The notes: generated from the sequence alone by a model not told the origin. DNA of 47,096 nt from Elusimicrobiota bacterium (GCA_016207685.1 JACQPE010000083.1:1-47096); one strand, 5' to 3'; numbered from the stretch's first letter, positions 5,522 through 47,096 are shown. Program-made: numbers and translations.

Positions 5522-6865
5522 ATGCGCGCTATTTTCGCGTTGAGCATGGTTTTATTATCAGTCCGGCCATCCATGAGCGAATGTCCGTCTGGTTTACCAT
5601 ATTGTCCGGAGAATTCCGCGGTGGCGGCGCAAAAATCTTTTGAAGGAACGATTCCCGAACGATTTAAGCCGGAATCACCCGTTCGGGCTCCCGGCGGCGC
5701 GCACATAAACTTTTTGGCGGCCGTGGTAATGCCCAATGCGATTTACGGCGCCGCTTCAGCCTCCCATGCCGCTCATCGAGTGACTGCCCGACAAAAATTA
5801 TGGGCTTCAGTCACGCCAAGCGTTCAGGTAACGGATCAAGGCATTTTTGTGTCGGTTTCAGGAGGTCAGCCAACGGTTTTTCCCCCTGAACTTGAAAACG
5901 ACCCTGCCCGCATTGCCGAGTTGCAGGAGGATTACAATCCCGCCGGCTACCACACGGCTTTTATCATGGGCGGCACAAGTATGCTCGCGGGAGCTCTCCT
6001 TGAAGCGGGAGGCGTTGTTTCAACGCCGGAGCCTTGGTATGTTGACCTCGTTCTCAACGGCGGCAGCGGCTTTGCTTTGGGCTGCACTTTCAACCAAGGC
6101 GCCTTAAGCAGGGACATCGCGCAAGGCGCCTTAAATGGCATCAGCGGCTGGGGCACATCCTTGGCCGCTTCCGTCATTTTTGACAAACCGGCGCCGGACC
6201 CTAGATATGCTACGATCTCCTATGCTGCCATTTATGGATTAAAGGGTGTCTTGCCCAACAATGGCAATCCCATTTTTACCGATGGCGTGACCAATGGCAA
6301 TTGGCTCACCAATGCGGCCACGGACATTGTTTTTGCCGGCCTCTGGGATGGCACATCCGGATTTCTGGCCCAGACCCTGCGCGGCCGGCCCGAATCGAAA
6401 GATTTTCTCTCGGACTTAGCCGGAGGCCTTATATTCAAAGGCATCCAAAACGCCTACTATGGAACCCGCATTGAATTAGACCCCTCCGTGCTTGCCCGGG
6501 CCGAACGCCTCGCTTTAACCGGCGCCGGGGCCGATGTCAGCCATCTCATGGGTGATGCGGAAATCCGGCGGGGCGGTCTCTATTTCATGTTCAATCCCGG
6601 CGATCAGACAACCGCCAGAACCTGGATTACCGTTAAAAACTCCTACGCCCTAGGGGATCTCGCCAATCGAGGCGAATTGACTTCTTCCGGCGACCGGACA
6701 TCAGCCGTTTTGGCCGGTGGATTCACGCATTTATGGACCCTGGATCGCGTGGGCTTGCAGCTTGGCCTTTGGAGAGTCTACCGCACGATCACAGGCGCCG
6801 ATCAAGGCGCAACCCTCTATGATGACTTACCGGATGAGGCAAAGAGACCGTTGGAACCAGAGTAG
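5522..6865 (+). CDS. Secreted hypothetical protein, Gly/Ala-rich
   Basis: 447-aa ORF with a signal-peptide-like N-terminus (MRAIFALSMVLLSV); no family recognised. Confidence 0.7.
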   Translation: MRAIFALSMVLLSVRPSMSECPSGLPYCPENSAVAAQKSFEGTIPERFKPESPVRAPGGAHINFLAAVVMPNAIYGAASASHAAHRVTARQKLWASVTPSVQVTDQGIFVSVSGGQPTVFPPELENDPARIAELQEDYNPAGYHTAFIMGGTSMLAGALLEAGGVVSTPEPWYVDLVLNGGSGFALGCTFNQGALSRDIAQGALNGISGWGTSLAASVIFDKPAPDPRYATISYAAIYGLKGVLPNNGNPIFTDGVTNGNWLTNAATDIVFAGLWDGTSGFLAQTLRGRPESKDFLSDLAGGLIFKGIQNAYYGTRIELDPSVLARAERLALTGAGADVSHLMGDAEIRRGGLYFMFNPGDQTTARTWITVKNSYALGDLANRGELTSSGDRTSAVLAGGFTHLWTLDRVGLQLGLWRVYRTITGADQGATLYDDLPDEAKRPLEPE

Positions 6866-8233
6866 TCAATTTCCAAAAAGCCTGAAACCAAGAGCCATGC
6901 TCCGTAACGCCGGTTTTTCGATCCCAGCATTGATTGGCGTGGCATCTCCAACAATTCCTGACAGCGCAGCAGCCCATGTCCGCATTCCGGATAAAACGGG
7001 GGTAGACCGGCTTTGGGATACCAATGAAAAACCGCTGCTTGCCGCCTCCATAGCGGCCCGCGCATTGACCAATCCCGCGCCCTGCGCCCCGGCGTCATAG
7101 CCCAAATTCTCCGCCGATTCGAGCAAAATGCGTCTAACTTGTCCGGCTGCAAGTGAAGGATTTACGTTCAATATCAACGCCGCAACGGCGCTGACCATTG
7201 GAGCCGACATGGAAGTTCCACTATATCGCTCATAGCCGCCTCCGGGAACAGTAGAAAAAATTTCAGCGCCTGGGGCTATGAGATCGAGCCCTTCGCCGGT
7301 GTTAGAAAAATCAGCCACGCTGTCATAACCGTCACTGGCTCCCACGGCAATGACCTCATCATAAGCCGCGGGATAGTCCATCTCATCTTTGCCGTCGTTG
7401 CCGGATGCGGCAACTAAAATAATCCCTGCCCTGGCGGCCTGCCTGACCGCTTGATAGAGAGCTTCGTTGTCATCGGGGCTGCCCAAGCTCATGTTGATGA
7501 CGCGCGCTCCGGTCCCCATGCAATACTCAATACCGGAGATCACCGCCGAGTCCGGAGCGCCGCCTTCGGCGCTGAAGACCTTGGCGTGGAACAACCGGGC
7601 CCGCGGCGCGACACCAGCCACGCCGCGGCCATTGACGCGCGCCGCGATGATGCCGCTGACATGCGTGCCGTGGCCCAATTCATCTTCCAAGTCCCCTGAT
7701 CCGGTAAAGTCCATGCCGCCTTGATAAACTCCCGCCAAATCAGGATGTCCGCGGTCAATGCCGGAGTCAATGATGCAAACTGCCGCTCCTTGCCCTTGCG
7801 AGATTTTCCAAGCCTCCGGAGCCTCAATACGCGCCACGCCCCAATCAATTTCCGAATCCTCATCCAATTTCATGGGCCTGAATAACTTTTTAGCCCCAGG
7901 CAGCGGGACTATGGGCCTGACAAGGCCGTCATCAATAACCTCTTCGATCTGCGGATGACCCTGAAGACGCGCGGCGGCTTCGCTGGAGATACGCCCCAAC
8001 ATTCCGTTGATGAGCCTTAATTCCATCACCGGCTCGCCACCGGCCTCATGGATAAGGTCTTCCCGGCCTTCGGTGTCCAGCTTGCAGGAATGTTTAAAAA
8101 GGACTATTTTTCTTTGATTTACCGGCTCCCATGAATCATCTGCTGCCCATCCCCAAGGAGATTGGATGCTCCACGCGACCAACCCAACAACGCCCAGCGT
8201 AAAAAATCCCATTCCCTTGCCGCCGGTCTTCAT
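6866..8233 (-). CDS. S8 subtilisin-like serine protease with signal peptide and propeptide
   Basis: Catalytic triad motifs IIDSGID, HGTHVSG and GTSMSAP; oxyanion motif AASGN; AGGAGG RBS. Confidence 0.95.
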   Translation of the reverse strand: MKTGGKGMGFFTLGVVGLVAWSIQSPWGWAADDSWEPVNQRKIVLFKHSCKLDTEGREDLIHEAGGEPVMELRLINGMLGRISSEAAARLQGHPQIEEVIDDGLVRPIVPLPGAKKLFRPMKLDEDSEIDWGVARIEAPEAWKISQGQGAAVCIIDSGIDRGHPDLAGVYQGGMDFTGSGDLEDELGHGTHVSGIIAARVNGRGVAGVAPRARLFHAKVFSAEGGAPDSAVISGIEYCMGTGARVINMSLGSPDDNEALYQAVRQAARAGIILVAASGNDGKDEMDYPAAYDEVIAVGASDGYDSVADFSNTGEGLDLIAPGAEIFSTVPGGGYERYSGTSMSAPMVSAVAALILNVNPSLAAGQVRRILLESAENLGYDAGAQGAGLVNARAAMEAASSGFSLVSQSRSTPVLSGMRTWAAALSGIVGDATPINAGIEKPALRSMALGFRLFGN

Positions 8234-8600: not shown

Positions 8601-9695
8601 ATGCGATGCCAGTCTTGTAGGCTATTGAGGAAAGAAGGGCTCGCTTTTTCATTGGCGGCCTTTTTAAGCCTGGCGCCGGGAGGCCGCCAGGCGGTCCAGG
8701 CAATGACTCTACCCTTAATGCTCGCCGGCTGCAACCAGGGGCCGGGCTACGATGAATGCACGAAGTCCACAAGCTACGATAAAAGCCTTGTTGTGACTAA
8801 TGCGCAATTTGAGGACATTGCCTCGGCGTGCAATTTGTATTTGGTCACCTGGGATGCTTTTCACCATCCCATCATCAGCCAGGAGTGCGCGGATGAGATC
8901 AAAAGCGTTCTGCCCATTGATCCCGAATGGGAAGATAACGACGATGAAACAGCCCAAGGAGTCTTAAATACGGTCATACGCGGATTCCATTATCTGCTTT
9001 TTTTCCCCTTGGCGGATGATCAAACGATGATGGGAATTGAGGATTACTACTGCGATTCCATTTACCAGGGCTTCCTTCACGCCCAAAAAAAATCCGCCGT
9101 ATTGACGGCCCGCGTTTTAAGCCGTTCAGGATATCAAAACAGCTTATCCCAAATGAATACGGGGCTATTTCGATTCATCGTTGAGCGGCTTGATTTCCTG
9201 GTTTATGACCCCGTAAAAGTTCACAAAAAAGAAGCGCTGGCTTATGAATCGGGAGGAGATATGATTTTTGGGTCGGATATTGAAAAGTTTTCTCCCATTG
9301 ACACTGCGGTTATCATTATCCATGAATCAAGGCATAACAACAGGGGTTTTTCCGACCTCGCCGATCATGTCCCTTGCTATAACTCGGACAATGTCGACGC
9401 CGAAGATGGGGAACAGGCTTGCGATGATTCTTTCTTTGGAGCCTTTGGAGCGGGGCTCTCCTATCTGGATGCTCTGGCCAAAGGTTCGTCCTACCTGACC
9501 CTTGATAACGGCACTTCGATCTTAAGCGATACCTATCAAATAAGCTACCTTATTCAAGGCGCCTGCGAGATCGTCAACGGCGGCATTAATGAACCCGGGC
9601 CGGAGTTATCCGATATCTTCGGCGATTATGATTGTTTTCATAATACAAACACCGCCACTGACGAAGAAATCTTCGACCGCCTCTATGGGCGCTGA
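8601..9695 (+). CDS. Putative lipoprotein with HExxH zinc-metallopeptidase motif
   Basis: Lipobox-like LMLAGC; IIHESRH; acidic and Cys-containing. Start uncertain (8601 or 8703). Confidence 0.65.
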   Translation: MRCQSCRLLRKEGLAFSLAAFLSLAPGGRQAVQAMTLPLMLAGCNQGPGYDECTKSTSYDKSLVVTNAQFEDIASACNLYLVTWDAFHHPIISQECADEIKSVLPIDPEWEDNDDETAQGVLNTVIRGFHYLLFFPLADDQTMMGIEDYYCDSIYQGFLHAQKKSAVLTARVLSRSGYQNSLSQMNTGLFRFIVERLDFLVYDPVKVHKKEALAYESGGDMIFGSDIEKFSPIDTAVIIIHESRHNNRGFSDLADHVPCYNSDNVDAEDGEQACDDSFFGAFGAGLSYLDALAKGSSYLTLDNGTSILSDTYQISYLIQGACEIVNGGINEPGPELSDIFGDYDCFHNTNTATDEEIFDRLYGR

Positions 9696-34958: not shown

Positions 34959-36481
34959 TAAAATTCGTCGCGCCCGGCCATCATCTTAAGAAGTTTCCAT
35001 TGTCCCTTGCGAAAAGGCTCGATGCGGCATGCCATTCGCCCGGCCCACAAGGCGTAAGGCCTCCGCACGGGAGCAACACGGCTGATTAAATACTCGAAAT
35101 AACCCCTTTGCGACCACGTCTCCGGGTTTTGCGAATCCCAGCGCAGCGAGGCCTTAAGCTCGCGGTCGATTTCCTTTTCCGCGGTTCCCGGCATCACCGC
35201 CATCATCCCAACCCATGCGCCGCTCTGCATTAATGCCGCGCGCCCCAAGGTCAACGTGGCGGCGCCGGAAAAAAGCGCCATGGCGCAAAAAACAACAACG
35301 ATCACGCCCCCTGCGTTCCCGGCAGGCTTTTGGGCCGCACTTTTGTTTAGGCTTGCGTGCGAAGCCGTAAGAGCGACAAAAACAAGAAAAATGGGCAATA
35401 GAAAATGGCTGGACTCAAAAATCCCTGATAACGCGAAAATCCAAAGGGTTGCTGAAAGACTCCACGAAAAGGGCCGCCGGCGCAGATATAAATGCCTGCA
35501 GGAATAAATCAACCAGCAAATCAAAAAAACACCGATGAGACCATATTGACATAAGTATTCTACGGCCGCATTATGACTCAAAATCGAACGAAGCCCAGAC
35601 GAGTCCCCGTGATAAATAGGATACGCCGAAGCAAAGCCGCCTAAATGAGCGACGCCCAGCAATGGATGGTCAAGAAACATCAGCCATCCCGCGCGCGTCC
35701 AGTGCAGCCGCTGCGTTAAAGACTGCGGCCCCGTGGAGCCACCGATGGCCATCGCAAAAAACAATACGCCCAACATGGCAGCTAAAATAAAAATCTTAGG
35801 GCCAAAACGTTCCTTCAACAAACGCCTTGCTCCAATGACAAGTCCCATCAACGCCACCGCGCCAACCATCGAGCGGCTGCTCAGAAGTGAAACGGCCGCA
35901 ATCGCCACGACGCCACCATAAAACCAAAAAATCCGACCATCCCTGTTGCGGTTCTCCTCAAGCCAAAATTCAATCGCCGTCGGTAAAATAAGGCCTAAAT
36001 ACACGGCTAAAATGTTCTGATTCGCCAGCGCCAAATGCCTTGCTTCGCTGTGACTAAAAATCCATCGAGCGCCGATCCAAATGCATGAAACAATCCAGGC
36101 CCCGGCAACAGCCAAAAAACGAATTCCCCGGACACGCTCCGGAGAACAGGCGGCATCCTCATTGACGCGCTCGATCAGAAGGCAGCCGAACACAAGACAA
36201 ACGGCAATTCCGAGAGCCTGCTCCCACATCCAGCTTGTCGTGCGCCAAGCCGAGCATAAACAATAAACAATCAAAGCGCCCCAGGGCCTAATATCAACCG
36301 CTTCAAAACGGCGTTTTGCGCTTAACATCGAGGCGGCCAAAATCACCGCTGCGATAAAACATAAAATAAACGGCCCCGTAACTTTCGGTGCTAACCCATA
36401 AAGAGACGGCGCCGTCAAAAGCGGCAAAAATAACAAAAAATCTTTGGGGTGAATTGTCAGCGGCTGATCAATATCAGTCAA
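34958..36481 (-). CDS. O-antigen ligase (WaaL/Wzy_C)-family protein, candidate pilin oligosaccharyltransferase
   Basis: NQNILAVY, SRS, QRLHW...FLDHPLLGV...F...Y, SHN; multi-TM; overlaps the pilQ stop. Confidence 0.8.
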   Translation of the reverse strand: MTDIDQPLTIHPKDFLLFLPLLTAPSLYGLAPKVTGPFILCFIAAVILAASMLSAKRRFEAVDIRPWGALIVYCLCSAWRTTSWMWEQALGIAVCLVFGCLLIERVNEDAACSPERVRGIRFLAVAGAWIVSCIWIGARWIFSHSEARHLALANQNILAVYLGLILPTAIEFWLEENRNRDGRIFWFYGGVVAIAAVSLLSSRSMVGAVALMGLVIGARRLLKERFGPKIFILAAMLGVLFFAMAIGGSTGPQSLTQRLHWTRAGWLMFLDHPLLGVAHLGGFASAYPIYHGDSSGLRSILSHNAAVEYLCQYGLIGVFLICWLIYSCRHLYLRRRPFSWSLSATLWIFALSGIFESSHFLLPIFLVFVALTASHASLNKSAAQKPAGNAGGVIVVVFCAMALFSGAATLTLGRAALMQSGAWVGMMAVMPGTAEKEIDRELKASLRWDSQNPETWSQRGYFEYLISRVAPVRRPYALWAGRMACRIEPFRKGQWKLLKMMAGRDEF

Positions 36482-38345
36482 CGATTTTAGGCGTCACAAA
36501 CACTAAAAGTTCGGTTCTTGGCTCATTCAACGACGTTCGACGAAAAATCCAGCCGATAAGCGGTAAATCACCCAAAAACGGCACCTTAGTTGTTTGTCTA
36601 TCTTTCAGTTCGGTAATCAAACCGCCAATAACGGCCGTCTCGCCATCTTTCACAATGAGCGTCGTTGAAGCCGTGCGTGAATTGATCGCCGGCGCCAGCC
36701 CCGGAATGCCGCCGGTTGATCCCACTTGGCTGACAGTGGGCGTAATTTTCATCCGAATGTAACCATCTGAAGTAACCACGGGGGTCACCGCCAGCATCAC
36801 GCCCACGCTAAGATAAGAAACGCTCTGCGTCGTTCCCACGCCCGGCGAGACCGTCGTCTGCACTGTCGGCACTTGGCTGCCCGCTGATATGGTGGCCGGC
36901 TGGTTGTTCAACGTGACAATTTTCGGATTGGAAAGAACCTTAAGCTTTCCTTCGCGGGCCGCCAGCGTCAATGCCGTCGTTAAAAAAGAGGTGTTTGTCA
37001 CGCGTCCAAAGGCAAATCCGAGCGATGTGACGGCCGTTCCTCCGGCCGGAAGGCTTAATCGAAGAGGATTGTCCGGCATCACACCGTCAGCGCCGCCGAT
37101 GGGTTCGGCGCTGTTAGGGTCGAAACTGCCCAGCGATTGCCGGTCTACTTTATCACCGGAGCTTCGATCCCAAGACTTGGCGTATTGCCACTCGATGCCG
37201 TAATCAAGCGCCTTATCTATCTGCAAATCAATCACCTTGGCCTCGATAGAAACGGCTTTAGGCCGGGCGTCCAATTCTTTAATGAGCTTGGCCGTCTGCA
37301 ATAAGCCATCTTCGGTATCGACCACGATCAATGCGTTGATATCATTGGCGATCAAAATGTTGCCTTTACGGCCCTCCAATTGGCGGATAGCGTCCAAATG
37401 CGTTTTCATTTCGGAAGCCGCGATATAATTCAAAACAAAAATCCTCGTGAACGTAATGGCTTGCTGCTTCTCGGCCAAATAGGTATTCGGACCCATGACC
37501 TTAATGACATTGGACCCCGTCTGCAGGGCCACCATCTGCTTCATGGATAAAACCGTCTGCCAAACCTCCCGAAACGGCGTCTGCTTGAGCTTAAGCGTAA
37601 TCATTCCCGAGACATCAGATGCCGTAATCAAATTAACTTTGCTGCCGGTTAAAGCCTCCAATTTTTCAATCATGATGGTTAAAACGATTTTCATGTCAAC
37701 ATCTTGGAAATTCACATCAATCGGTGAACCCGGAAGCTCCGCTAAGATATCATGAACGCGCGCCGGCTCCCGGGAAGGCGCCGCCGGCGCTTGAGCCGGT
37801 TCTCGGGAAACATCCGATACAATTTTAGGAGACGGACCCTTGCCCGTGTCATCCAAAAAAAGCGTCACCAATCCCTCGGTTTCTTGGGTTTGGAAAGGGG
37901 TTGCCCGGCCCAAATCAACCACCACGCGCGCGACGCTTTCCGGGGCGCTGGCAAACTGCGCCACGCGAATATCCTCGATTAATCCGGAAGAATCTTTGGG
38001 CGCCTTGAACTTCTCGGCAAAACCGGCAGGCACCCATGTGTCATAAAATTCGAGAATGACTTTCGGCGGCCTGCTGACGGCGAAAGCCTTATATTTGGCC
38101 TCCTTGCCGTCTAGATGAACTCGAATTTTTTGCGTCTCCATCTCAATTCCGGAAAGCTTCGTCGCCGCCCGCCAAGTTTCCGCCGCAAAGGAGCCGCGGG
38201 TTGCGAGTTGCGGGTTCAAAGCTAGAAAAGCCAGCCCAAAAACTAAAAACGGATAGCGGATCTTAAGCAAGCGCAAATTTAAAAAAATTTTTCTATTTTT
38301 TCCGCTAACGCGCAACTCGCAACGCGCAACGCGCAACCTCTTCAC
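36474..38345 (-). CDS. pilQ: Type IV pilus secretin with N-terminal AMIN domain
   Basis: IRVAQF...ARVVVDL (AMIN); LSNPKIVTLNNQPATI, VKDGETAVIGGL, KVPFLGDLPLIGWIF, ELLVFVTPKI. Confidence 0.95.
   Translation of the reverse strand: MKRLRVARCELRVSGKNRKIFLNLRLLKIRYPFLVFGLAFLALNPQLATRGSFAAETWRAATKLSGIEMETQKIRVHLDGKEAKYKAFAVSRPPKVILEFYDTWVPAGFAEKFKAPKDSSGLIEDIRVAQFASAPESVARVVVDLGRATPFQTQETEGLVTLFLDDTGKGPSPKIVSDVSREPAQAPAAPSREPARVHDILAELPGSPIDVNFQDVDMKIVLTIMIEKLEALTGSKVNLITASDVSGMITLKLKQTPFREVWQTVLSMKQMVALQTGSNVIKVMGPNTYLAEKQQAITFTRIFVLNYIAASEMKTHLDAIRQLEGRKGNILIANDINALIVVDTEDGLLQTAKLIKELDARPKAVSIEAKVIDLQIDKALDYGIEWQYAKSWDRSSGDKVDRQSLGSFDPNSAEPIGGADGVMPDNPLRLSLPAGGTAVTSLGFAFGRVTNTSFLTTALTLAAREGKLKVLSNPKIVTLNNQPATISAGSQVPTVQTTVSPGVGTTQSVSYLSVGVMLAVTPVVTSDGYIRMKITPTVSQVGSTGGIPGLAPAINSRTASTTLIVKDGETAVIGGLITELKDRQTTKVPFLGDLPLIGWIFRRTSLNEPRTELLVFVTPKIVD
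38196..38338. repeat. Inverted heptamer (CGCAAC[G/T/C]) arms inside the 5' end of pilQ
   Basis: GCGGGTTGCGAGTTGCGGGTT (38196-38216) pairs with AACGCGCAACTCGCAACGCGC (38307-38327), 19/21. Confidence 0.8.
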
Positions 38346-38950
38346 GGCTTGCCCTGTCCTTCCTTTGAGGGAAATGAGAGCACCGCCATCATTGGTTCCC
38401 CTTGCACACGCTCTATAATGACATTTTCTTGTTCAACACGCGCCCTATAAGACGCCAAAACCAATCCCGTGGCGATATGCTTAAGCTTAAAACCATGGAC
38501 AATGAAACTATCTTCAGGATTTGAGACCATGGATAAGAGCGCCATCGGTTCTCCGCGCACATGATCAGTCATTACCGCTTTTAAAATCAAATCATCAACG
38601 CTGAGCGCTTCCTCAATTTCCTTAACCGACGCATACTTCGTCGCGGAGGAACCGCCCGAAGCGCGTGAGTCGCCCCCCGAACCTCCAAACGCAATCGCGA
38701 TAAAAGGATCTCTCATGTTGCGCGCCTTGTAAACGTAAGACGCGGCCGAAGTCGCCGTGCTCAAGGCCGCGGATCCTTCAGCGTGCAAGAATGACCCACA
38801 TGCTCCGATAGAGACAAGGACCAATAAAAAATGCCGAATGCCTAATCTTGCAATCTCGAACGACGAATTTCGAATGACGAATAAAAAGGATTCCTTAATT
38901 TGACATTCGAGATTCGACATTCGAGATTCGCTCATTTCTAAATTCGTCAT
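38342..38950 (-). CDS. PilP-like type IV pilus assembly protein
   Basis: Sits between pilO and pilQ; Y...MRDPF motif; hydrophobic signal after a repeat-derived N-terminal extension. Confidence 0.7.
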   Translation of the reverse strand: MTNLEMSESRMSNLECQIKESFLFVIRNSSFEIARLGIRHFLLVLVSIGACGSFLHAEGSAALSTATSAASYVYKARNMRDPFIAIAFGGSGGDSRASGGSSATKYASVKEIEEALSVDDLILKAVMTDHVRGEPMALLSMVSNPEDSFIVHGFKLKHIATGLVLASYRARVEQENVIIERVQGEPMMAVLSFPSKEGQGKP

Positions 38951-38953
38951 TTT
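38829..38953. repeat. Inverted heptamer (CGAAT/ATTCG) repeat array in the 5' end of the pilP-like gene
   Basis: About 7 AAT..CG units, a short spacer, then about 7 ATTCG.. units. Confidence 0.85.
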
Positions 38954-39520
38954 CTAGCTTCCTTTGTACTGAAACGTCACCAAAGTCAAATTAGCGCTGA
39001 TGCTCACCCATGGTTCATTGGCCGTGGGCGGGGATGGAGAAATACTGACTCCTCGGGCATGAAAAATTCGTTCCGTCTCCCCCATGGCCGCTAAAAATAG
39101 AGCTAAATCGTGGTACGAGCATGTCACCGTTAACCCAAAGGGAATTTCATAATAAAGCTCGCTGCTGGTGATGCCCTGCGGGTTGATCGAACCCATGCGA
39201 ATTCGGAAGCGCCTGGTCAGTTGGTTGATCGTCTGGAGTATCTGTGGCAAATTTTTCTTATCGGGAAGTTTCGCTCGCAGAAAAACCCAAGTTTTTTCAG
39301 CCTGGTCAATTTCACTAACGAGCCTCTCCCGATTTCTCGCTCTGCGATCGAGATCGTCAACGCGTTTGCTTAATTCAGAAATTTTGGCCTTATCGGCTTT
39401 TATTTTCTTGAGAGTAGGCCTTAAGAAATACTGCACATAACCGAAGGTCACCATGCCCGCCATTAAAACGACGGCCAAAATCGTCTGCTGCTGTTGTTTG
39501 GTTAGCTTGATTTTGGGCAT
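38954..39520 (-). CDS. pilO: Type IV pilus assembly protein PilO
   Basis: TM plus coiled coil, KLPDKKNLP, YYEIP...SYHDLALFL...ERI. Confidence 0.9.
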   Translation of the reverse strand: MPKIKLTKQQQQTILAVVLMAGMVTFGYVQYFLRPTLKKIKADKAKISELSKRVDDLDRRARNRERLVSEIDQAEKTWVFLRAKLPDKKNLPQILQTINQLTRRFRIRMGSINPQGITSSELYYEIPFGLTVTCSYHDLALFLAAMGETERIFHARGVSISPSPPTANEPWVSISANLTLVTFQYKGS

Positions 39521-39521
39521 A

Positions 39522-40067
39522 TTAGTTTGGCGGAACCACGGTAAACTTTATCGGGAAACTAACCTGATTTTCCGAACTGCTGATGGCGCCCAAACTGACT
39601 TTTGTAACCTCCGGCATGGACTCGAGACGCTCGAGCCAACGAATAACCGTATCGATGTTTAATGCAATGGCCTGCAGAGAAATTTCATAGCCTTCCATCG
39701 TCTTGCTGGTATTCATGCCGGCAAACCACACCTGGCCCGGCGGCAATCCTTGCACGATAATTTCCATGATCTTTGGATAATCCACACGGCCGACCAGCAG
39801 GGCGTTGACCACATTATTTTTGGAATCAATCTGCTGTTTTTTGCTTTCAAGCTGATCAACCTCTAAGGCAATGGCCTCGAGCTGGACAATGCGATTTTGT
39901 AGGGAGCCCGCTTGGCCGGCCAAGGCCTTGGATTTCATGCTTAAGGTTAACGTCACTGCCCCCACGACAGCGACCACTAGGGCCGCCGCGGCGGCGGCCA
40001 TTGTGGTCGTGCTGCGCTTTTTCTCTCGCTCAATGTATTCCCTGGGAACTAAATTAATCCTAATCAT
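39522..40067 (-). CDS. pilN: Type IV pilus assembly protein PilN
   Basis: MIRINLVP N-terminal motif, TM, coiled coil, LPPGQVW. Confidence 0.92.
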   Translation of the reverse strand: MIRINLVPREYIEREKKRSTTTMAAAAAALVVAVVGAVTLTLSMKSKALAGQAGSLQNRIVQLEAIALEVDQLESKKQQIDSKNNVVNALLVGRVDYPKIMEIIVQGLPPGQVWFAGMNTSKTMEGYEISLQAIALNIDTVIRWLERLESMPEVTKVSLGAISSSENQVSFPIKFTVVPPN

Positions 40068-40073
40068 GGAGCA

Positions 40074-41231
40074 TCAGCCTTTCTTCCAGTCCATCCACAC
40101 CCTCATGCCCAGCCCGCAAGCCACGCTAAAAAGCGGTCCTGCCTCAAAAGACGCTTGCGCCTCCGCAGGCGGCGCCAGCAGGCTGAAAGGGTTAAAAAGT
40201 TCAACAGGCATGCTCATTTGACTGCCCGCAAAAGGAATCAAATTCTTTAACAGCGATCCCCCTCCGGTTAGATAAATCCTATTAATCGATCGTTCCACGC
40301 CGTGCGTTAAATAAAAATCGACGGATTTGCTGATCTCCCCAAAAAGGTCGCTGGCCACGCCGCAGCAAATTTCTGAAATCTTGAGCTTTTCCTCTCCATC
40401 GGAACTAGACGAAAGCTTCGCCTTCTCGGCTTCATCCAGAATAATGCCCACCTCGTGTTTAGCCTGAAGCACCTTGGCAATCTCCCAACCCATGGCATTG
40501 TGCAGCGCTCGCGTGAAGGCCGAACCGGCCACGGCGACATCGCGCACGAGCCTCGGCGTTCCTTTTTCCAAAATCGCAAGATTTGTCACCGTTTCGCCGA
40601 TATTGCAGACAATAATCGTTTCACGCAAAATTTCAGGTTTTAAAGACATCAAATTGGAGAGCGCAAAAGCGTCGACATCCACCACGGCCGGCGAAAGTCC
40701 GGCTATAGAAAGAACGCCTAAACGATTTTCAATCAAATCCTTCTTTGCGGCCACTAATATCGTCTCATACTTGCGTTGGCCCTCTTCGGTGATATCGCTG
40801 ATAATATGGTAATCCAGGCTCACCTCCTTGATGTCAAAAGGAATGAAAGGTTCCGCCTCAAAACTCAATGATTTTTCAAGCTCCTCATGCGGCAATGCCG
40901 GAAGCTTGGCTTCGCGCACTATAACCGAACTGCCTGATATATTCGTCGCCACCAGCGCATTTTTGATCTTTGTCGCTTCAAAAAGCGCTCGAACCTCCCG
41001 GCCAATAAAGGAATTCCTTTCTTCGCCCTCCATAGGAAGGTCTTGAGCCGGCACCTCTCTTGAAGCCGCCGCTTCGATAACCCATGACGGACCTGATAGT
41101 TTCATGCTGATCAATTTAAGAGAAAAAGTGCCGATATCAATGGCGACCATCGGCTTTGATGGCCCTGCCAACGTCTTGGCGCGTTCGGCAAACGACTTAA
41201 TTTTTTGAATGATCTCTTCTTTTCTACCCAT
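40074..41231 (-). CDS. pilM: Type IV pilus assembly protein PilM
   Basis: AIDIGTFSLK, EAEPFIPF, LVAAKK, VDVDAFAL, IYLTGGGS, VACGLGMR. Start at ATG 41231 preferred. Confidence 0.95.
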   Translation of the reverse strand: MGRKEEIIQKIKSFAERAKTLAGPSKPMVAIDIGTFSLKLISMKLSGPSWVIEAAASREVPAQDLPMEGEERNSFIGREVRALFEATKIKNALVATNISGSSVIVREAKLPALPHEELEKSLSFEAEPFIPFDIKEVSLDYHIISDITEEGQRKYETILVAAKKDLIENRLGVLSIAGLSPAVVDVDAFALSNLMSLKPEILRETIIVCNIGETVTNLAILEKGTPRLVRDVAVAGSAFTRALHNAMGWEIAKVLQAKHEVGIILDEAEKAKLSSSSDGEEKLKISEICCGVASDLFGEISKSVDFYLTHGVERSINRIYLTGGGSLLKNLIPFAGSQMSMPVELFNPFSLLAPPAEAQASFEAGPLFSVACGLGMRVWMDWKKG

Positions 41232-41382
41232 CGCCGCTCTCTCTGAAAAGTAACGCATATCGAGCGATGAATGACCCCGGAGGAAAAACATCTCTTATTT
41301 CCATGCGCTCGTTACTCATCGTTAGTTAATCCTCACTGATCCCATATGGACGTGTCGAGTGTATCAGGGGAGACTGGATAAT

Positions 41383-42210
41383 TCAAGAGGAAATGATAAA
41401 AATTAGGCGTTTAAAGATCGCGGGGCCCATCCAAAGCAAAATAATTGCGGCCACCGATAAAAACGGCCCATACGCGATCGGGTCGCGTCTTCCCAGGCGC
41501 TTCAAAGCCAACAAAGGCAAGGCATAGGCCAAGCCCAAGGCCGATGAGACCGCCACCAAAGGCACCAAACTGCGCCAGCCCAGGGCGCCAACGATTGCAG
41601 CCGCCAATTTGACGTCTCCCCCTCCCATTGCTTCAACTTTATAAATTTTTTTTCCGGCCGCGGCAAAGAGCCAATAAATCCCGCCGCCGGCGATCATGCC
41701 TCCCAATGAGCCCGCCATTCGTCCGAGCGGTGAAACGCCCAATAATTCATTGGCAGGTGACGCCAAAAACATCACCAGACACAATCCCAGGCTTAAAAGA
41801 TCGGGAATAGTATAAGTTTGCCAATCAATCGCGGCAACGGCCAAAAGCGCCGTTTGAAAAAAACAAAATGAAAAAAGCATCACCCACTGCGCCATCGAGG
41901 AAGGCGGATATCTGGATGCGACAATCACGGAGCATAACATTGAAACAACCTCCACCCACAGATACTGGAATGCGATTCGCCGGCCACAACAGCGGCCTCG
42001 GCCGCGTAAAATCAAAAAACTGATAATGGGAATGTTATCCAACGGCTTGATAGAACTGCGGCAATGCGGGCAATACGAATAGGGCGGCGCCCAGGGCAAT
42101 TCACCCTTAGGCAATCGCCAAATCAACACATTGGCGAAACTTCCAAATATCGCGCCAATAATAGCGCCAAAAATTAAATGCAGCTTTATAAGTCCAAGGC
42201 CCCCCGCCAT
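41383..42210 (-). CDS. pilD: Prepilin peptidase/N-methyltransferase
   Basis: FGSFANVLIWRLP, SYCPHC, DNIPIISF, ID...IPD, MGGGDVKL, YGPFL. Confidence 0.95.
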   Translation of the reverse strand: MAGGLGLIKLHLIFGAIIGAIFGSFANVLIWRLPKGELPWAPPYSYCPHCRSSIKPLDNIPIISFLILRGRGRCCGRRIAFQYLWVEVVSMLCSVIVASRYPPSSMAQWVMLFSFCFFQTALLAVAAIDWQTYTIPDLLSLGLCLVMFLASPANELLGVSPLGRMAGSLGGMIAGGGIYWLFAAAGKKIYKVEAMGGGDVKLAAAIVGALGWRSLVPLVAVSSALGLAYALPLLALKRLGRRDPIAYGPFLSVAAIILLWMGPAIFKRLIFIISS

Positions 42211-42260
42211 GGGAATGGCGGGGGGCCTCTCAAAACAGGCCCACCTTCTGAAGATGGGCC
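42197..42260 (-). terminator. Tandem hairpins after the pilin gene
   Basis: Perfect 14-bp stem AGGCCCCCCGCCAT-GGGA-ATGGCGGGGGGCCT (42197-42228) and a second hairpin GGCCCA...TGGGCC (42238-42260). Confidence 0.65.
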
Positions 42261-42276
42261 GAACAAGCAGTCAATT

Positions 42277-42747
42277 TTAACGGTTGTTCCAAATGACAGA
42301 CTTGCTGTCATTGTGATTGCAACCAACATAGAAGTGTCCCCAGTTGACCGCCGTATTTTCGTTGATGTACTGCCACTGGCCGCTATCCGTCGTCGATGAG
42401 AATTCCGTCCCAACTGCTACGGTCGAGTTGTTGCCATGGCCCGGATTGTTGACTGACGTAAACGGAGGCACCATTACTTCCGGCATCTGCTTGAGGTATT
42501 TCTGGCCCGCTGACAGCACCGACATGTCATCCAATGGATTAATGCCGTCGCTATCTCCATAATAAATGGAGAGCGCGCTGCGCACGGAAGACATATTGCC
42601 GCGGGTCTTGCCCTCTTGAGCTTTCTTCACTAGGTCGGCGAACTTGGGGATCGCGATTGCCGCGAGAATACCGATGATTGCCACCACGATCATAAGTTCG
42701 ATCAAGGTGAAACCCCGCTCGCCAGACCGATGCGAATGCTTCATCAT
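42277..42747 (-). CDS. pilA: Type IVa major pilin
   Basis: Class III signal RG|FTLIELMIVVAIIGILAAIAIPKF; strong RBS GAGGGGGTGA before ATG 42747. Confidence 0.9.
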   Translation of the reverse strand: MMKHSHRSGERGFTLIELMIVVAIIGILAAIAIPKFADLVKKAQEGKTRGNMSSVRSALSIYYGDSDGINPLDDMSVLSAGQKYLKQMPEVMVPPFTSVNNPGHGNNSTVAVGTEFSSTTDSGQWQYINENTAVNWGHFYVGCNHNDSKSVIWNNR

Positions 42748-43154
42748 TTTTATCACCCCCCTCATCAAAGAACAATCGCCGCTGGGGCTTGGGGAGCCCT
42801 TAACCGGCGCTTCTAGGTTAGCGATTATCAAAGTCAAATGCAAGGTGATCGCGCTCACATTGGCGGGGAGCTATCTAAAAAATTATCCCAGAAACACTAG
42901 AAGTGGTTCCAAAATTCCCCACAGGAATTCGATCCATCGATTCCCCATCTGACCTCCTTGAAGGAGCCGATCAAAATCCCTGTTTCATCTCTTAAGCCAT
43001 GCCCTGAAAATCCCATGAGCGAAATTTAAATTTTACCGTCGGATTCTTTTTGTTCCCAAAAAATTGTCTGAACTCCCCGGAAAATTCTTCCGGCTCCCCT
43101 GGCGCCCGCTTAAAAGGGGTGTTAATTTCAAAATTAATGAGCCGGTAGATTTCA

Positions 43155-43241
43155 CCGAAAAGGCAAACCCGCGGCAACGCGGGGACGCAAAGTCATGGAC
43201 CCCTGCACCCTGGGCCTCTTGGGGGCCGCCAGACTGCCGAA
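43155..43241 (+). ncRNA. Cyclic di-GMP-I (GEMM-I) riboswitch aptamer
   Basis: Consensus GGCAAA-CCCGCG-GCAA-CGCGGG-GACGCAAAG...GCCAGACTGCCG, located in the 5' leader of the 658-aa gene. Confidence 0.9.
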
Positions 43242-43278
43242 GGATCAGCAATGGATGCTGCGGCAGTCTGGTTTTTTT
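43229..43278 (+). terminator. Intrinsic terminator forming the riboswitch expression platform
   Basis: CCAGACTGCCG (43229-43239) / CGGCAGTCTGG (43261-43271) 11-bp stem plus T7. The left arm is the aptamer's 3' strand. Confidence 0.88.
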
Positions 43279-43298
43279 GTTTTTGAGGGAGGGAAATT

Positions 43299-45275
43299 TT
43301 GGGTTTAAGGAGACGTTTGGGGCCGGCATTGTGGCTGGCGGTTTTGGCCGTCCCCGGCTCATTAACAGTTTTCCCTGCCCTTGCTTCGGACATCGCCTCC
43401 TGGGTTATTCCCTCCGGAGGCGCGCTGGGTCAAGGAGCCTTTCAGGCAATCACGGTTGGTCAAGCCGTGGCCGCGCCTTCCGCAGGTTCAATCGCGGGTC
43501 TGGGCTTTGCCCCCACCATCCGCCCCATTGATCTTATGCCTCCAAGGACCTCTTTGCTTCTGGGCTTGCCCAAGTTTCAAGACTCCCAAGGGCTCCTGTT
43601 CATCGCTTCAAGCGCTGTTGCGGCCTTGGCCTCTGTTGATGATCTCCTTGAGATCGCAGACCAAGAGGGGACCGGGGTTCTCGAGCAAAGACTCTTTATT
43701 GACTCCTTGTTAAAAGCCGTATTCTCCAATACTTCTGATCTGCCCACTCCTGGTGATAAACGCGGGCAGGTGTTGACCTCGAGCTTCACCCTGGCCTTGG
43801 AATCCGAGGGCCTCCATCTCCTGGGTTTCTTCGCCCAAGACGCCTTGGGCAACGCGGAGAGCCTGATCACCCAAACGATTGCCCTTGATAAGACTCCTCC
43901 GGTGACCAGAGTCTCCCTGGGGCCATTGCAGCAAAACGTTTTCGGCATCGCCCTTGTTTCCACATCCAGCCTGATCACGCTCGAATCCCTGGACCCTGTT
44001 TCAGGAGGCGTGGCCTGCGGCGTCAAGGCGATTGAATTTAAGATCGAGACCTTAAGCGGGGTCAATGCCGCGACTTCGGGATTTCTTGCCTATGTCTCTG
44101 CCTTCTCTTTGCCCCAGGGAACCCATCGCATTAGTTTCCAAAGCATGGATCAGGTGGGCAATAAAGAACCAGAGAAAAGCATCGTTGTTGCGGTGAGCAT
44201 GCTTGAGGCCGCTGCTCTGACCGGAGTCGCCGGCGTTGAAGCCTCGGGAACAGCCGACATCAGGGGCGGTATTTTTTCCAATGGGGAGGTTTCCCTTAAA
44301 GGAACGGTCAATGTCACGGGTTCCGTGGCCGCTTCCACGATTAGCGTTACGGGCAATGGCTCCATTGCCGGTGAGCGTCGCATCAATGCCCTGACCTTGG
44401 AGGAGGAGCCTATGTCCCTGGCCCTGATGCTTGAAACCGCATCGCTCCATAACGATAACAATCTTATTCCTTCAAAATTTTTAGACCCTGATAGCGCCCT
44501 GCGCGTTGATTCCCAAAAAACCTTGGTCTTGGGCACGGGGACCTATCTTGTCTACGGCTTGACGATCTTAAGCCAGGGTTCCCTTGAAACTCAAGGTCCT
44601 GTCAATCTCTTCATTCAGGGGCCCCTGAGCATCGCCGGAGGCGGTCTCCTTAAGAGCCGGGGAAACCCGCAAGAGCTTTTTATCGCAGTGGCAGGGACCC
44701 ATAGGGTCTTCTTGGGAGGCGGCGCTTCGGCTTCCTTAACGCTCTACGCCCCCCGATCCGGCATCAGCCTGCAAGGCAACGCCTCAGTCACAGGACATCT
44801 ATGGGCCCGCCATGTGACAGCCCAGGGGACCTCTATGGTCATTCAAGCCCCGGAGGCGCCATCCCCTGCATTAACTCAAACAACTCAAAGAACATCCCCG
44901 ACCCCATCATCAGGCAAGGGCAACGGCTTCAAGACCGCCTCGCAGGAAGCCTCCCTGCCGGATAAGGCCTTTGCCCTGCGGGAAGTCTTTGTGTTTCCCA
45001 ATCCCTCCAGGCAGGGCCAAAAGCCTGTTTTCCATGTGGAAGCAGGCCTGGCCCAGGGCCTGGTGATCACTATCTATGACTTGAGCGGCGAGATGCTCTA
45101 CCGCAGGGTGTTGAATGCAACCCCTCAAATCATCGCCAGGGGCGCAGCGCCCCAATACGCCTATGAATACACCCTTGAGGAACCTTTGCCCACGGGAGTG
45201 TACCTCTATCTCATCGAAGCCCAGTGGGACAATTTGGCCCTCAAGCGAGCCGGGAGGTTCAGTGTTGTTAGATAA
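43299..45275 (+). CDS. Secreted surface protein: Ig-like repeats, beta-helix-like region, T9SS type A-like C-terminal sorting domain
   Basis: Signal peptide; D..PP.T...D..GN.E repeats; C-terminal VFVFPNP...ITIYDLSGE...LPTGVYLY...GRFSVVR. Confidence 0.8.
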   Translation: MGLRRRLGPALWLAVLAVPGSLTVFPALASDIASWVIPSGGALGQGAFQAITVGQAVAAPSAGSIAGLGFAPTIRPIDLMPPRTSLLLGLPKFQDSQGLLFIASSAVAALASVDDLLEIADQEGTGVLEQRLFIDSLLKAVFSNTSDLPTPGDKRGQVLTSSFTLALESEGLHLLGFFAQDALGNAESLITQTIALDKTPPVTRVSLGPLQQNVFGIALVSTSSLITLESLDPVSGGVACGVKAIEFKIETLSGVNAATSGFLAYVSAFSLPQGTHRISFQSMDQVGNKEPEKSIVVAVSMLEAAALTGVAGVEASGTADIRGGIFSNGEVSLKGTVNVTGSVAASTISVTGNGSIAGERRINALTLEEEPMSLALMLETASLHNDNNLIPSKFLDPDSALRVDSQKTLVLGTGTYLVYGLTILSQGSLETQGPVNLFIQGPLSIAGGGLLKSRGNPQELFIAVAGTHRVFLGGGASASLTLYAPRSGISLQGNASVTGHLWARHVTAQGTSMVIQAPEAPSPALTQTTQRTSPTPSSGKGNGFKTASQEASLPDKAFALREVFVFPNPSRQGQKPVFHVEAGLAQGLVITIYDLSGEMLYRRVLNATPQIIARGAAPQYAYEYTLEEPLPTGVYLYLIEAQWDNLALKRAGRFSVVR

Positions 45276-46191
45276 GCCCCATGCCTCAAGTCTCCCGTGC
45301 CTTGCCTTTGTCTTATTTTTCCTTCCCTCGCCCATCTTGTGCCAATCCTCCTCCGGCTTCTCCTTTTTGAAAATCAGCGTGGACGCGAAATCCGAGGGTC
45401 TCTCCGGAGCCTATACCGCCATGAGCAATAATGTAACGAGTCTCTACTGGAACCCGGCGGGATTGGCTTGGGTCAATAAAAAAGAAGTCTTGGCCACTCA
45501 TTCAGAGTGGCTCTTGGGGTCCCGGTTCGATTTCCTGGGGGTAGGCATCCCATTGTCAAAATTTAAGGGCTCCCTGGGCCTTGGGGTTTCCATGCTTTCT
45601 CAAAAAGAGCAAGAGGGAAGGGATGAACAAGGCAACAAAACAGGGAGCTTTCCGGCCAATGATGGGGCATTGACTTTGGCTTTGGGCCGCAAGATCAGCT
45701 TATCCTCCCAATGGGGCATGGGCTTGAAGCTCATCCGCAGTCAAATCGCCTCGGACATCGGCCAGGGTCTTGCCCTTGACCTTGGGGTCCGGCATGGTCA
45801 TCGTTTCAACCGGATACCTCTTACCTTGGGAGTCTCCATCTTGAACCTTGGGCCGGGCGTCACCTTCATTGATGAGCCCACAAAATTGCCTTTGACATTG
45901 GCCGCTGGCCTGGCCATTGAGTCCTGGGGAGCGTTTGCCCTGTCGGCTGATTGGCGTTACCGTGTTGATGATCAAAAAGTTCTCTGGGCAGCGGGGACGC
46001 AATACTCCCTTTCGCCTGGTTTTTCCTTAAGAACGGGATATGGCATCACGGATAAGACGGGAGAAGACATTGTATCCGGTCTTGGGCTAGGCTTTGGGAT
46101 TAGTCTTCGGGGATACCAGTTGGACTACGCCTTCACCCCGATGGGAGACTTGGGCAATGCGCATAAGTTCAGCTTGGGAGCGAGGTTTTGA
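45262..46191 (+). CDS. PorV/PorQ-family (FadL-like) outer-membrane beta-barrel
   Basis: SFLKISVDAKSEGLSGAYTA...LYWNPAGLA, LDYAF...LGNAHKFSL, terminal Phe. GGGAGG RBS before GTG 45262 / TTG 45265. Confidence 0.88.
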   Translation: MLLDKPHASSLPCLAFVLFFLPSPILCQSSSGFSFLKISVDAKSEGLSGAYTAMSNNVTSLYWNPAGLAWVNKKEVLATHSEWLLGSRFDFLGVGIPLSKFKGSLGLGVSMLSQKEQEGRDEQGNKTGSFPANDGALTLALGRKISLSSQWGMGLKLIRSQIASDIGQGLALDLGVRHGHRFNRIPLTLGVSILNLGPGVTFIDEPTKLPLTLAAGLAIESWGAFALSADWRYRVDDQKVLWAAGTQYSLSPGFSLRTGYGITDKTGEDIVSGLGLGFGISLRGYQLDYAFTPMGDLGNAHKFSLGARF

Positions 46192-46213
46192 TGAGCAACG
46201 AATCAGGGATTGA

Positions 46214-46627
46214 TCAGATGGGTTTATCCTGCGCCAAATTCAAAAATTGCCGTGGTGAGAGAACAGGAATATTCTCAAATGAAATAACCTTTTGCACCTG
46301 GCGGTCACTGCTCACAATGACATCCGCGCGGGCATCAACGGCGCATTCGAAAAATTTGTCATCTGAAGGGTCGCTGATGACAACCCGTAAAATTCTTCGC
46401 GGTTGCGACAAAATAGTTTTCCCTGAATCTTCGATCAACAAGGAAAGATTTTTTAAATGCGCCTTGCTGATGCCAGATTGCCGTAAAACCCGCTCGTATT
46501 CTTTGGTGATCACCGGCGAGACCGCCACCCGAATCACGCCCGAAATCCAAAAATTCAAAATCGCTTTAGGCGGACCGCCGAAAAATACAGCAGAAAAAAG
46601 CGTGCTTGTATCGATGACTAAAATCAA
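46214..46627 (-). CDS. PIN-family putative TA toxin
   Basis: LVIDTS...E...DPSDDKFFECA...IVSSD. Confidence 0.88.
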   Translation of the reverse strand: MILVIDTSTLFSAVFFGGPPKAILNFWISGVIRVAVSPVITKEYERVLRQSGISKAHLKNLSLLIEDSGKTILSQPRRILRVVISDPSDDKFFECAVDARADVIVSSDRQVQKVISFENIPVLSPRQFLNLAQDKPI

Positions 46628-46631
46628 AATT

Positions 46632-46886
46632 TTAGGGACTTCGTTCTTTGGCCCGGGCTACAAGACGCTCCAGGTCCGGCTCTCTCCATCCATGCCTCTT
46701 GGCAAGCCGTTGACCTTCTTGACAGAGGCGTTCGATACGTTCCTTAAGTTTCTTGTCCCTCGCGCGAAACATCTCTACTTCCAGATGATGAAAAATTTTT
46801 TCCTTCTCCGGCCTCGCGAGCCGGTCAATCTCTTTCAAAAGGTTTCCAGTTTTCGGCGACATAAAAGTTATGGCTTCTACAACCAT
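46632..46886 (-). CDS. Putative antitoxin partner of the PIN toxin
   Basis: Small charged ORF 4 bp upstream of the toxin. Start 46886 or 46862. Confidence 0.65.
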   Translation of the reverse strand: MVVEAITFMSPKTGNLLKEIDRLARPEKEKIFHHLEVEMFRARDKKLKERIERLCQEGQRLAKRHGWREPDLERLVARAKERSP

Positions 46887-46969
46887 AGTTTAGCAGGAAT
46901 TCTTCATGTCGCGCCATGCCTGCGCATCAAGCACACGCAGGCAGCGCAAATATTTACACGGGAGGAATC

Positions 46970-47096
46970 ATGAACATGCGTCAAAAAACAATTAAGCTCT
47001 TTTGCGTTTTCCTGCTTTCTTTAATTCTCAACCCGCAACTCTTTGTTTGGGCCCAAATCCCCATGTCTTTAGTCATCCAAGGCCGCATGATCAAGC
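46970..47096 (+). CDS. N-terminus of a secreted protein (3' truncated by the window edge)
   Basis: GGAGG RBS; MNMRQKTIKLFCVFLLSLILNPQLFVWA|QIPMSLVIQGRMIK signal peptide; frame open to the end. Confidence 0.7.
   Translation, partial: MNMRQKTIKLFCVFLLSLILNPQLFVWAQIPMSLVIQGRMIK

Follow-up and report, generated by a model that had tools for sequence, protein, structure and literature searches.

A T9SS-type cargo gene overlapping the gene of its own PorV/PorQ-family barrel in an Elusimicrobiota genome: a candidate c-di-GMP-controlled surface-display cassette

The window considered here, meaning the whole stretch of DNA that was analysed, comprises 47,096 nucleotides from an Elusimicrobiota bacterium (GCA_016207685.1, JACQPE010000083.1:1-47096), and the element in question is a pair of overlapping genes at positions 43,299 to 46,191. 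The first gene encodes a protein with a signal peptide and, at its C-terminus, a predicted type IX secretion system (T9SS) C-terminal domain (CTD) of type A, hereafter the cargo; the second encodes a predicted outer-membrane beta-barrel of the PorV/PorQ family, and a riboswitch for cyclic di-GMP (c-di-GMP) lies upstream of both (Table 1). An earlier sequence-only reading of the window had proposed this arrangement, including the overlap of the two genes and their joint position under the riboswitch, and had placed the host outside Bacteroidota; both proposals were borne out. The genome (2.37 Mb in 202 contigs, 90.27% complete) belongs to Elusimicrobiota, which NCBI taxonomy places outside the FCB group. 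Among 16 related barrel loci in species-representative genomes, 12 carry the titles Elusimicrobia, Elusimicrobiota or Elusimicrobiaceae, three are titled 'bacterium' and one 'candidate division FCPU426'. The host is thus a member neither of Bacteroidota nor of the FCB group.

Table 1. Features at the cargo-barrel locus, in window coordinates
Feature	Position	Strand	Basis
Type IV pilin gene, divergently transcribed, first of the pilD-pilMNO(P)Q operon (36474-42858)	42277..42858	-	Pfam N_methyl, Peptidase_A24, PilM_2, PilN, PilO, Secretin; context only
Class I c-di-GMP riboswitch aptamer (GEMM-I), predicted	43153..43242	+	RF03167 66.5 bits (gathering score 59); RF01051 63.5 bits (gathering score 35)
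Putative expression platform: 12-bp terminator stem, then U7GU5; the 5' arm shares bases with the aptamer's 3' side	43228..43284	+	sequence and minimum free energy (MFE) fold
Ribosome-binding site GAGGGAGGG, 5 nt 5' of the TTG start at 43299	43285..43293	+	read from sequence
Cargo gene, 658 aa, TTG start	43299..45275	+	open reading frame (ORF); signal peptide, residues 1-30, read from sequence
Predicted T9SS type A CTD of the cargo	44961..45272	+	TIGR04183 24.2 bits, tail alone (cut-off 23)
Ribosome-binding site GGGAGG of the barrel gene, within the last part of the cargo gene	45252..45257	+	read from sequence
Predicted PorV/PorQ-family outer-membrane barrel, 309 aa from GTG 45262, signal peptide	45262..46191	+	NF033709 155.6 bits (cut-off 90)

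The longest ORF of the barrel gene starts at 45115. The probable start is instead the GTG at 45262, since the GGGAGG motif lies 5 nt upstream of it, a normal signal peptide follows, and relatives use the same start. From this codon, the barrel gene overlaps the cargo gene by 14 nt, running over the cargo stop codon (45273-45275), compared with 19 nt in the nearest relatives, and the 161-nt overlap implied by the longest ORF is probably not real. The NF033709 match spans model positions 2-326 of 326. In contrast with this family-level score, the barrel fell below the equivalog cut-offs of the PorQ model NF033711 (85.8 bits, cut-off 220) and the PorV model NF033710 (53.9 bits, cut-off 250). A profile of 21 relatives matched Flavobacterium johnsoniae PorV (6h3i_F) at E 2.2e-32, and two Pfam families gave weak matches below their cut-offs (Toluene_X, 23.4 bits; UPF0164, 20.5 bits). 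By these profiles, the barrel is a member of the PorV/PorQ family that is neither PorV proper nor PorQ proper. Six other cargo-paired PorV-like barrels of this genome, on contigs C7, C136, C183, C79, C171 and C34, are 505-552 aa long with C-terminal extensions, which in C136 and C183 appear TPR-like by eye; the window barrel, at 309 aa, has no extension. A 520-aa PorV-like protein that lacks a CTD neighbour (C156:14725-18089) carries a C-terminal extension matching CsgG (28.9 bits, residues 382-458), and the gene of a DUF885 protein (532.5 bits) follows its own.

The AlphaFold2 (AF2) model of the cargo, built with 23 relatives in the alignment, reached a predicted local distance difference test (pLDDT) score of 79.3. 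Its limits suggest disorder to residue 74, immunoglobulin (Ig)-like domains at residues 77-300, a beta-helix at residues 305-520 (DUF7305, 43.9 bits over residues 430-514), a disordered Pro/Ser/Thr linker at residues 520-551 and the type A CTD at residues 555-658. An OmpL47-type domain was matched below its cut-off (37.4 bits, cut-off 40). Foldseek with the whole model returned the Ig domains of the SiiE adhesin, the HPI S-layer protein, RbmA and ice-binding-type beta-helices, all at target-normalised TM-scores of 0.57 or lower; because these matches are weak, we term the passenger adhesin-like and nothing further. A search for homologues of near length had returned the cargo itself and one weak match, and the notion that the cargo is an orphan was dropped given the 3080 proteins that an exhaustive HMMER search returned at E <= 1e-3 (243 at E <= 1e-30). 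Many of these relatives are giants of 1000-7000 aa that align to cargo residues 157-658 with their last ~500 residues and contain as many as 30 copies of the Ig region. The family to which the window cargo belongs is thus one of giant surface proteins, and the cargo is short for that family.

The CTD of the cargo, which passes the TIGR04183 cut-off when searched alone, scored 23.8 bits with its neighbours in frame, and a hidden Markov model (HMM) built from 16 tails of this genome gave it 63.5 bits, the window sequence itself being in the seed. When 20 tails were aligned, all 20 matched TIGR04183, 17 matched PF18962, 19 the PorZ model, 14 the PorU model and one TIGR04131. A profile of these tails, searched against all PDB sequences, ranked the CTD of PorZ first (5m11, residues 668-758, E 1.9e-14) and that of PorU second (6za2, residues 1055-1154, E 4.6e-11), followed by FlgD Ig domains (E ~1e-4) and the substrate CTDs of 8glk (1.4e-4) and 8glj (2.5e-3). 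The AF2 model of the tail alone is an 8-strand sandwich at pLDDT 93.7. In the VIA structural comparison, it aligned with the CTDs of PorU (Z 10.9, root-mean-square deviation 2.6, 92 residues aligned), PorZ (Z 10.6, 2.1, 82 residues) and mirolase (Z 10.0), and generic FN3/Ig folds ranked level with these T9SS CTDs, so that fold alone does not discriminate between them. With the CTD model by itself, Foldseek returned nothing at E <= 0.001. A C-terminal lysine column that is near-invariant in the domain is occupied by arginine in the window. On profile and model grounds taken together, the C-terminus is a T9SS type A CTD with a predicted Ig-like beta-sandwich fold and a predicted role as export signal.

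Pairing of a CTD gene with a barrel gene recurs throughout this genome. The PorV_fam model gave 30 matches, 15 of them over the cut-off, phmmer with the window barrel retrieved 25 ORFs, and the 16-tail HMM identified 26 proteins with a C-terminal CTD. A PorV-like match begins 77-351 nt past the stop codon, on the same strand, for 18 of these 26 CTD proteins, which is the pair count that the sequence-only reading had proposed to make. Five more lie in a barrel-containing cluster, one is at a contig edge and two have no nearby barrel. Among the clustered five, those on C163 and C34 are each accompanied by a second CTD gene, the one on C25 has one gene in between, and the barrel comes first on C181 and on C112/C30. 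Since the end of C112 (C112:2-1654) and the start of C30 (C30:2-2854) encode the same peptide, one barrel-first CTD gene is apparently split over these two contigs. The adjacency of CTD and barrel genes is not due to chance.

The same arrangement is found across the phylum. In 11 of the 16 related loci, the barrel gene is directly preceded by an ORF that ends in a CTD-like sequence, 10 of the tails being confirmed by TIGR04183 and that of locus L025 recognised by eye; two further loci have a CTD-like ORF ~0.6 kb upstream (by eye), one is cut by the contig end and two have none. The nearest cassettes (L019, L021 and L022) share 35-42% identity with the window in the CTD and 38-41% in the barrel, and their passengers are 183, 203 and 978 aa long. 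Because these loci keep CTD and barrel and differ in the passenger, the conserved unit appears to be tail plus barrel. CTD and barrel distances were correlated over 26 pairs (Mantel r 0.72, 0 of 5000 permutations as high), and a correlation was also seen among the 16 pairs of this genome only (r 0.40, 10 of 5000 permutations as high). This co-divergence indicates that pairs are inherited as units and is, taken alone, no proof of specificity. The PorV family was present in 61 of 61 phylum genomes, with 1 to at least 33 matches each, counts from ~29 matches upward being lower bounds. PorV-like and TIGR04183 counts rose together over these 61 genomes, which are related and not independent (rho 0.93). 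Taken together, these counts show that most CTD proteins of this genome, and CTD proteins across the phylum, are wired to one barrel per cargo.

At most six PorV-like matches were counted in 25 genomes, mostly small ones, and 19 of these gave no TIGR04183 match. Small genomes of 1.1-1.8 Mb in families f2 and f6 (for example G014-G050, G002, G012 and G021) carry 1-6 PorV-like matches and mostly a SprA-like ORF, with no TIGR04183 match. In these genomes, cargo tails may have diverged beyond the reach of the model, or the barrels may have another purpose.

We modelled the complex of the mature barrel (residues 28-309, 21-row alignment) and the 101-aa tail (20 rows), as the sequence-only reading had suggested. 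The interface score ipSAE was 0.88, 0.88 and 0.89 in three runs and 0.00 in all three controls, with a pLDDT of 85 for the docked partner and at least 90% of contacts agreeing between runs. The mark used for such scores is reached by 116 of 157 solved complexes and by 2 of 215 mismatched pairs, and is rough here given the custom alignments. On the CTD side, the predicted interface consists of the PNP strand, the IYDLSGE strand, the GVY strand and the last strand, and on the barrel side of the N-terminal segment and loops. The window CTD is thus predicted by the model to bind its own barrel. The two proteins might instead be neighbours without partnership, the barrel being a FadL-like uptake channel or a general porin that shares an operon with surface proteins, and the sub-cut-off matches to Toluene_X and UPF0164 would fit this explanation, as would the four PorV-like genes of the genome that have no CTD neighbour (on C201, C145, C156 and C114, the last at a contig end). 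We consider it very improbable given that the adjacency recurs (18 of 26 direct, 23 of 26 clustered), that CTD and barrel co-diverge, that docking separated the pair from the controls, and that the PorV/PorQ-family score lies well over its cut-off. A dedicated cargo-barrel pair, as had been proposed, is therefore the better account of translational coupling, recurrence in genome and phylum, co-divergence and predicted binding.

Upstream of the pair, the aptamer exceeds the gathering score on both the canonical model (RF01051) and the 'GGC' variant model (RF03167, c-di-GMP-I-GGC), and it carries an A at the G column of the GGC consensus (GACGC-A-AAG in the RF03167 alignment). By covariance-model score it is a class I c-di-GMP riboswitch that passes the canonical and GGC-variant models alike. 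The MFE fold of 43150-43290 contains the terminator hairpin (-65.4 kcal/mol, z -3.68, with 0 of 200 shuffles equally stable). Because the same bases are claimed by aptamer and terminator, we read the element as a probable ON switch in which the ligand would prevent termination. Between the cargo and barrel genes, terminator-like sites did not exceed shuffle expectation, and both genes thus appear to lie under the riboswitch. The only other GEMM-I-like element in the genome (C181:252-366) scored below both gathering scores (RF03167, 43.7 bits; RF01051, 33.7 bits) and has the G of the GGC consensus. It precedes a barrel-first operon (C181:252-9686) that encodes a PorV-like barrel, a 198-aa ORF without a Pfam match and a 2564-aa CTD protein. 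With respect to c-di-GMP signalling, the genome gave three GGDEF matches. On C175 (12981-18153), a GGDEF-domain gene (165.5 bits) directly precedes the gene of a CTD protein of 1036 aa, and a weak PorV-like match (24.4 bits) comes next; the GGDEF-domain gene may serve as a local source of c-di-GMP beside that cassette.

For the rest of the T9SS machinery, the sequence-only reading had proposed a search for sprA, porK/L/M/N and porU. This search yielded a divergent candidate for sprA, whereas the body of PorU and GldL, GldM and GldN were not found and GldK was matched in part. The single SprA-like ORF of the genome (C187, 1823 aa) aligned to the 2319-position model TIGR04189 in three stretches that are collinear (155.2 bits, E 1.4e-45), and SprA-like ORFs of 1730-1900 aa are present in 38 of 41 phylum genomes. 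In searches that had no T9SS-bearing positive control, GldM was found in 0 of these 41 genomes, most of which are 96-100% complete, and GldL gave three ~16-bit matches, none of them credible. The one partial GldK match in the genome under study reached 64.1 bits against a cut-off of 350 and is limited to model positions 219-404, which we take to be the generic sulfatase-modifying-type half of the model. All nine NF033707 matches in the genome lie at model positions ~953-1095, the CTD part of PorU, the best reaching 47.8 bits against a cut-off of 420. By these profile scores, from searches without a positive control, no protein of this 90%-complete genome qualifies as part of a canonical T9SS motor (PorL/GldL-PorM/GldM), PorK/GldK-PorN/GldN ring or PorU sortase. 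A FliG C-terminal domain (92.6 bits each) was found in a 627-aa and a 670-aa ORF (C8:11152-11469 and C118:5477-5794); contigs C8 and C118 gave no PorV-like match, and no link of these ORFs to the window cassette was found.

That an ordinary, complete T9SS is present after all, its motor, ring and sortase genes having been missed in the unassembled 10% of the genome or having diverged too far, is the least probable of the alternatives considered here. It would account for the weak GldK-like match, and it draws on the 90.27% completeness of an assembly in 202 contigs and on GldL/M/N searches that lacked a positive control; the near-complete phylum genomes without GldM or a credible GldL, and the confinement of the GldK-like match to a presumably generic half of the model, speak against it. 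Because the host lies outside the FCB group, the searches recovered no full canonical T9SS and the model shows the CTD fold, the proposal of a T9SS-related pair beyond Bacteroidota still stands.

Taken together, these data lead us to favour, at a probability of roughly 0.6, the reading that the gene pair is a surface-display cassette induced by c-di-GMP and that it is part of a reduced T9SS-related system in which each cargo has one carrier or anchor barrel. In this mechanism, the leader RNA would fold as a terminator when no ligand is present, and the c-di-GMP-bound aptamer would sequester the 5' arm of the terminator to permit read-through. The transcript would encode a Sec-exported, adhesin-like cargo with Ig-like and beta-helix parts that ends in the type A CTD and, translationally coupled to it, a PorQ/PorV-like barrel of the 14-strand type, whose surface loops are predicted to bind the CTD of their own cargo. 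The most likely route of the cargo over the outer membrane would be the single SprA-like giant barrel, with the cognate small barrel as carrier, and the small barrel would then hold the cargo at the cell surface. The CTD is probably retained, since the searches turned up no PorU-type sortase and the closest likeness of the tail is to those of PorZ and PorU, which are not cleaved.

A different fate of the cargo is conceivable at this last step, namely that the barrel is a transient shuttle that carries cargo from the translocon as PorV does, after which a protease that was not recognised here cuts off the CTD and the protein is released or attached elsewhere. PorV is a shuttle in Bacteroidota, where the step that requires energy is the release of the carrier-substrate complex (PMC10994853), and a subtilase gene that could be read in favour of such cleavage lies within the window at 6866-8233. 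We regard the transient shuttle as unlikely: the PorU model was matched via its CTD part only, the tails are closest to two CTDs that are not cleaved, and the near 1:1 ratio of genes fits stoichiometric partners better than a recycling carrier.

Several observations weigh against the surface-display cassette. In the full-length cargo, the CTD scored 18.7 bits on TIGR04183, below the cut-off of 23. Any two genes duplicated as a unit would be expected to co-diverge, and since PorV-CTD complexes have been solved (8glj, 8glk), the docking score shows likeness to these complexes and is not proof that this copy binds. At the gathering threshold (Rfam), no riboswitch was detected in the loci of 14 relatives, which indicates that the association of the cassette with a riboswitch is not conserved. 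GldL, GldM and GldN gave no match in this 90%-complete genome, again in searches without a T9SS-bearing positive control. Surface location, CTD retention, ligand response and binding are all predicted properties. The SprA-like ORF falls below the TIGR04189 cut-off (155.2 bits against 200), has no phmmer match in the PDB and no Pfam match at E <= 0.01, and its gene is not adjacent to any cassette; in addition, three phylum genomes that have PorV-like genes gave no SprA match (for example G040, with six PorV matches).

The unlinked SprA-like gene and the three genomes without a SprA match would suit a self-sufficient two-partner exporter, in which the PorV-like barrel alone moves the cargo over the outer membrane without a SprA-like pore, as would the compact, translationally coupled form of the gene pair. 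The sequence-only reading had raised such a minimal two-partner system, which we now judge improbable: a single-copy SprA-like ORF accompanies the barrels in 38 of 41 genomes, and in the known system SprA supplies more than half of the buried CTD surface (PMC10994853). The barrel is also of the small FadL/PorV type, with ~280 mature residues, and the passengers are folded and up to 3736 aa long. Given the SprA-like gene, we think it likelier that the pair belongs as a module to a reduced T9SS-like system than that it exports cargo on its own.

A wider reading is offered tentatively, as a possibility rather than an expectation. Elusimicrobiota may possess a system with a SprA-type pore, type A CTDs and PorQ/PorV-type barrels that lacks the PorLM motor, PorKN ring and PorU sortase, in which each cargo has its own barrel and which is powered otherwise or not at all. 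The PorZ-PorQ and PorU-PorV pairs of Bacteroidota might then be remnants of an older one-cargo-one-barrel design, with c-di-GMP riboswitches here directly choosing which cassettes are displayed.

With respect to the surroundings of the pair, the barrel gene converges with a PIN-domain toxin gene (66.7 bits) and an 84-aa upstream partner on the minus strand (46214-46886), and a 261-aa plus-strand ORF that overlaps this gene pair (46188-46973) is probably spurious. Elsewhere in the window, the plus-strand ORFs at 1675-4302, 5522-6865 and 8601-9695 (875, 447 and 364 aa) gave no Pfam match at E <= 1e-5. Near-identical peptides resembling 'KSSKFQVPSSKSK' open many ORFs of the genome when these are taken in their longest form, for example at C51:5054, C7:19457, C85:15809 and C112:6128.

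The phylum as a whole appears to combine the pore and the tail with numerous carrier barrels, one per cargo in coupled gene pairs, and neither a motor nor a sortase could be detected in it. No description of T9SS-type cargo-barrel pairs in Elusimicrobiota was found in the literature searched, most subscription journals being outside the reach of that search. If our reading is correct, the minimal core of the system, the way in which carrier release is powered without a motor, and the determinants of CTD-barrel specificity would all become testable. Tail and barrel with exchangeable passengers look like a natural surface-display module, and the riboswitch would connect this cassette directly to c-di-GMP, the sessile-state signal.

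Compared with known systems, several elements of the locus are familiar. Surface and adhesion genes are a usual target class of c-di-GMP, and the GEMM-I RNA is itself ordinary; its T9SS-like cargo and barrel target is unusual. As in two-partner secretion (TpsA/TpsB), the gene of a secreted, adhesin-like protein lies beside that of its own outer-membrane barrel, and the likeness is an analogy only. TpsB, an Omp85-type barrel, bears POTRA domains, and its partner carries the signal at the N-terminus, as a TPS domain. Here, in contrast, the barrel is of the FadL/PorV type and a C-terminal Ig-like domain would serve as the signal.

Closer parallels are found within the T9SS, which the papers cited here describe as confined to Bacteroidota and allies, dependent on a proton-driven motor and equipped with one PorV for all type A cargo (PMC10202324, PMC12618676, PMC10994853). 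In F. johnsoniae, all type A CTDs use a single PorV (PMC12618676), and in its SprA-PorV translocon (6H3I, 8GLJ, 8GLK) the CTD binds the extracellular loops of PorV (PMC10994853). The predicted interface of the window pair likewise uses barrel loops and the last CTD strand, and a SprA-like gene is present. Unlike that translocon, the Elusimicrobiota genome has a sub-cut-off SprA-like protein of 1823 aa, as compared with the 2319 positions of the model, ~25 carrier paralogues instead of one and no GldLM motor that could be found, and the window CTD has arginine in the near-invariant C-terminal lysine column. Cargo genes with type B CTDs are linked to genes of PorP/SprF-like barrels, which are needed for secretion and targeting (SprB-SprF in F. 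johnsoniae; PMC12618676), and for these pairs retention of the CTD on the cognate PorV-like barrel has been discussed (PMC10202324). The window pair resembles SprB-SprF in that a cargo gene is linked to the gene of its own specialised PorV-like barrel, and differs from it in joining type A-like CTDs each to a PorV/PorQ-family barrel rather than type B CTDs to PorP/SprF.

The nearest counterparts are PorZ-PorQ and PorU-PorV of Porphyromonas gingivalis, in which a surface protein keeps its uncleaved type A CTD and is held on the cell by a PorV-family barrel bound to this domain (PMC10202324). Unlike in these two pairs, the window barrel lies below the equivalog cut-offs, no anionic lipopolysaccharide (A-LPS), sortase or PorKLMN context was found, and the host belongs to Elusimicrobiota. 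The tail profile matches the CTDs of PorZ and PorU best among solved structures, and of the PorQ and PorV models it is the former that gives the window barrel the higher score. In P. gingivalis such pairing concerns two parts of the machine, whereas in this genome it covers most of the cargo and is encoded by overlapping, neighbouring genes.

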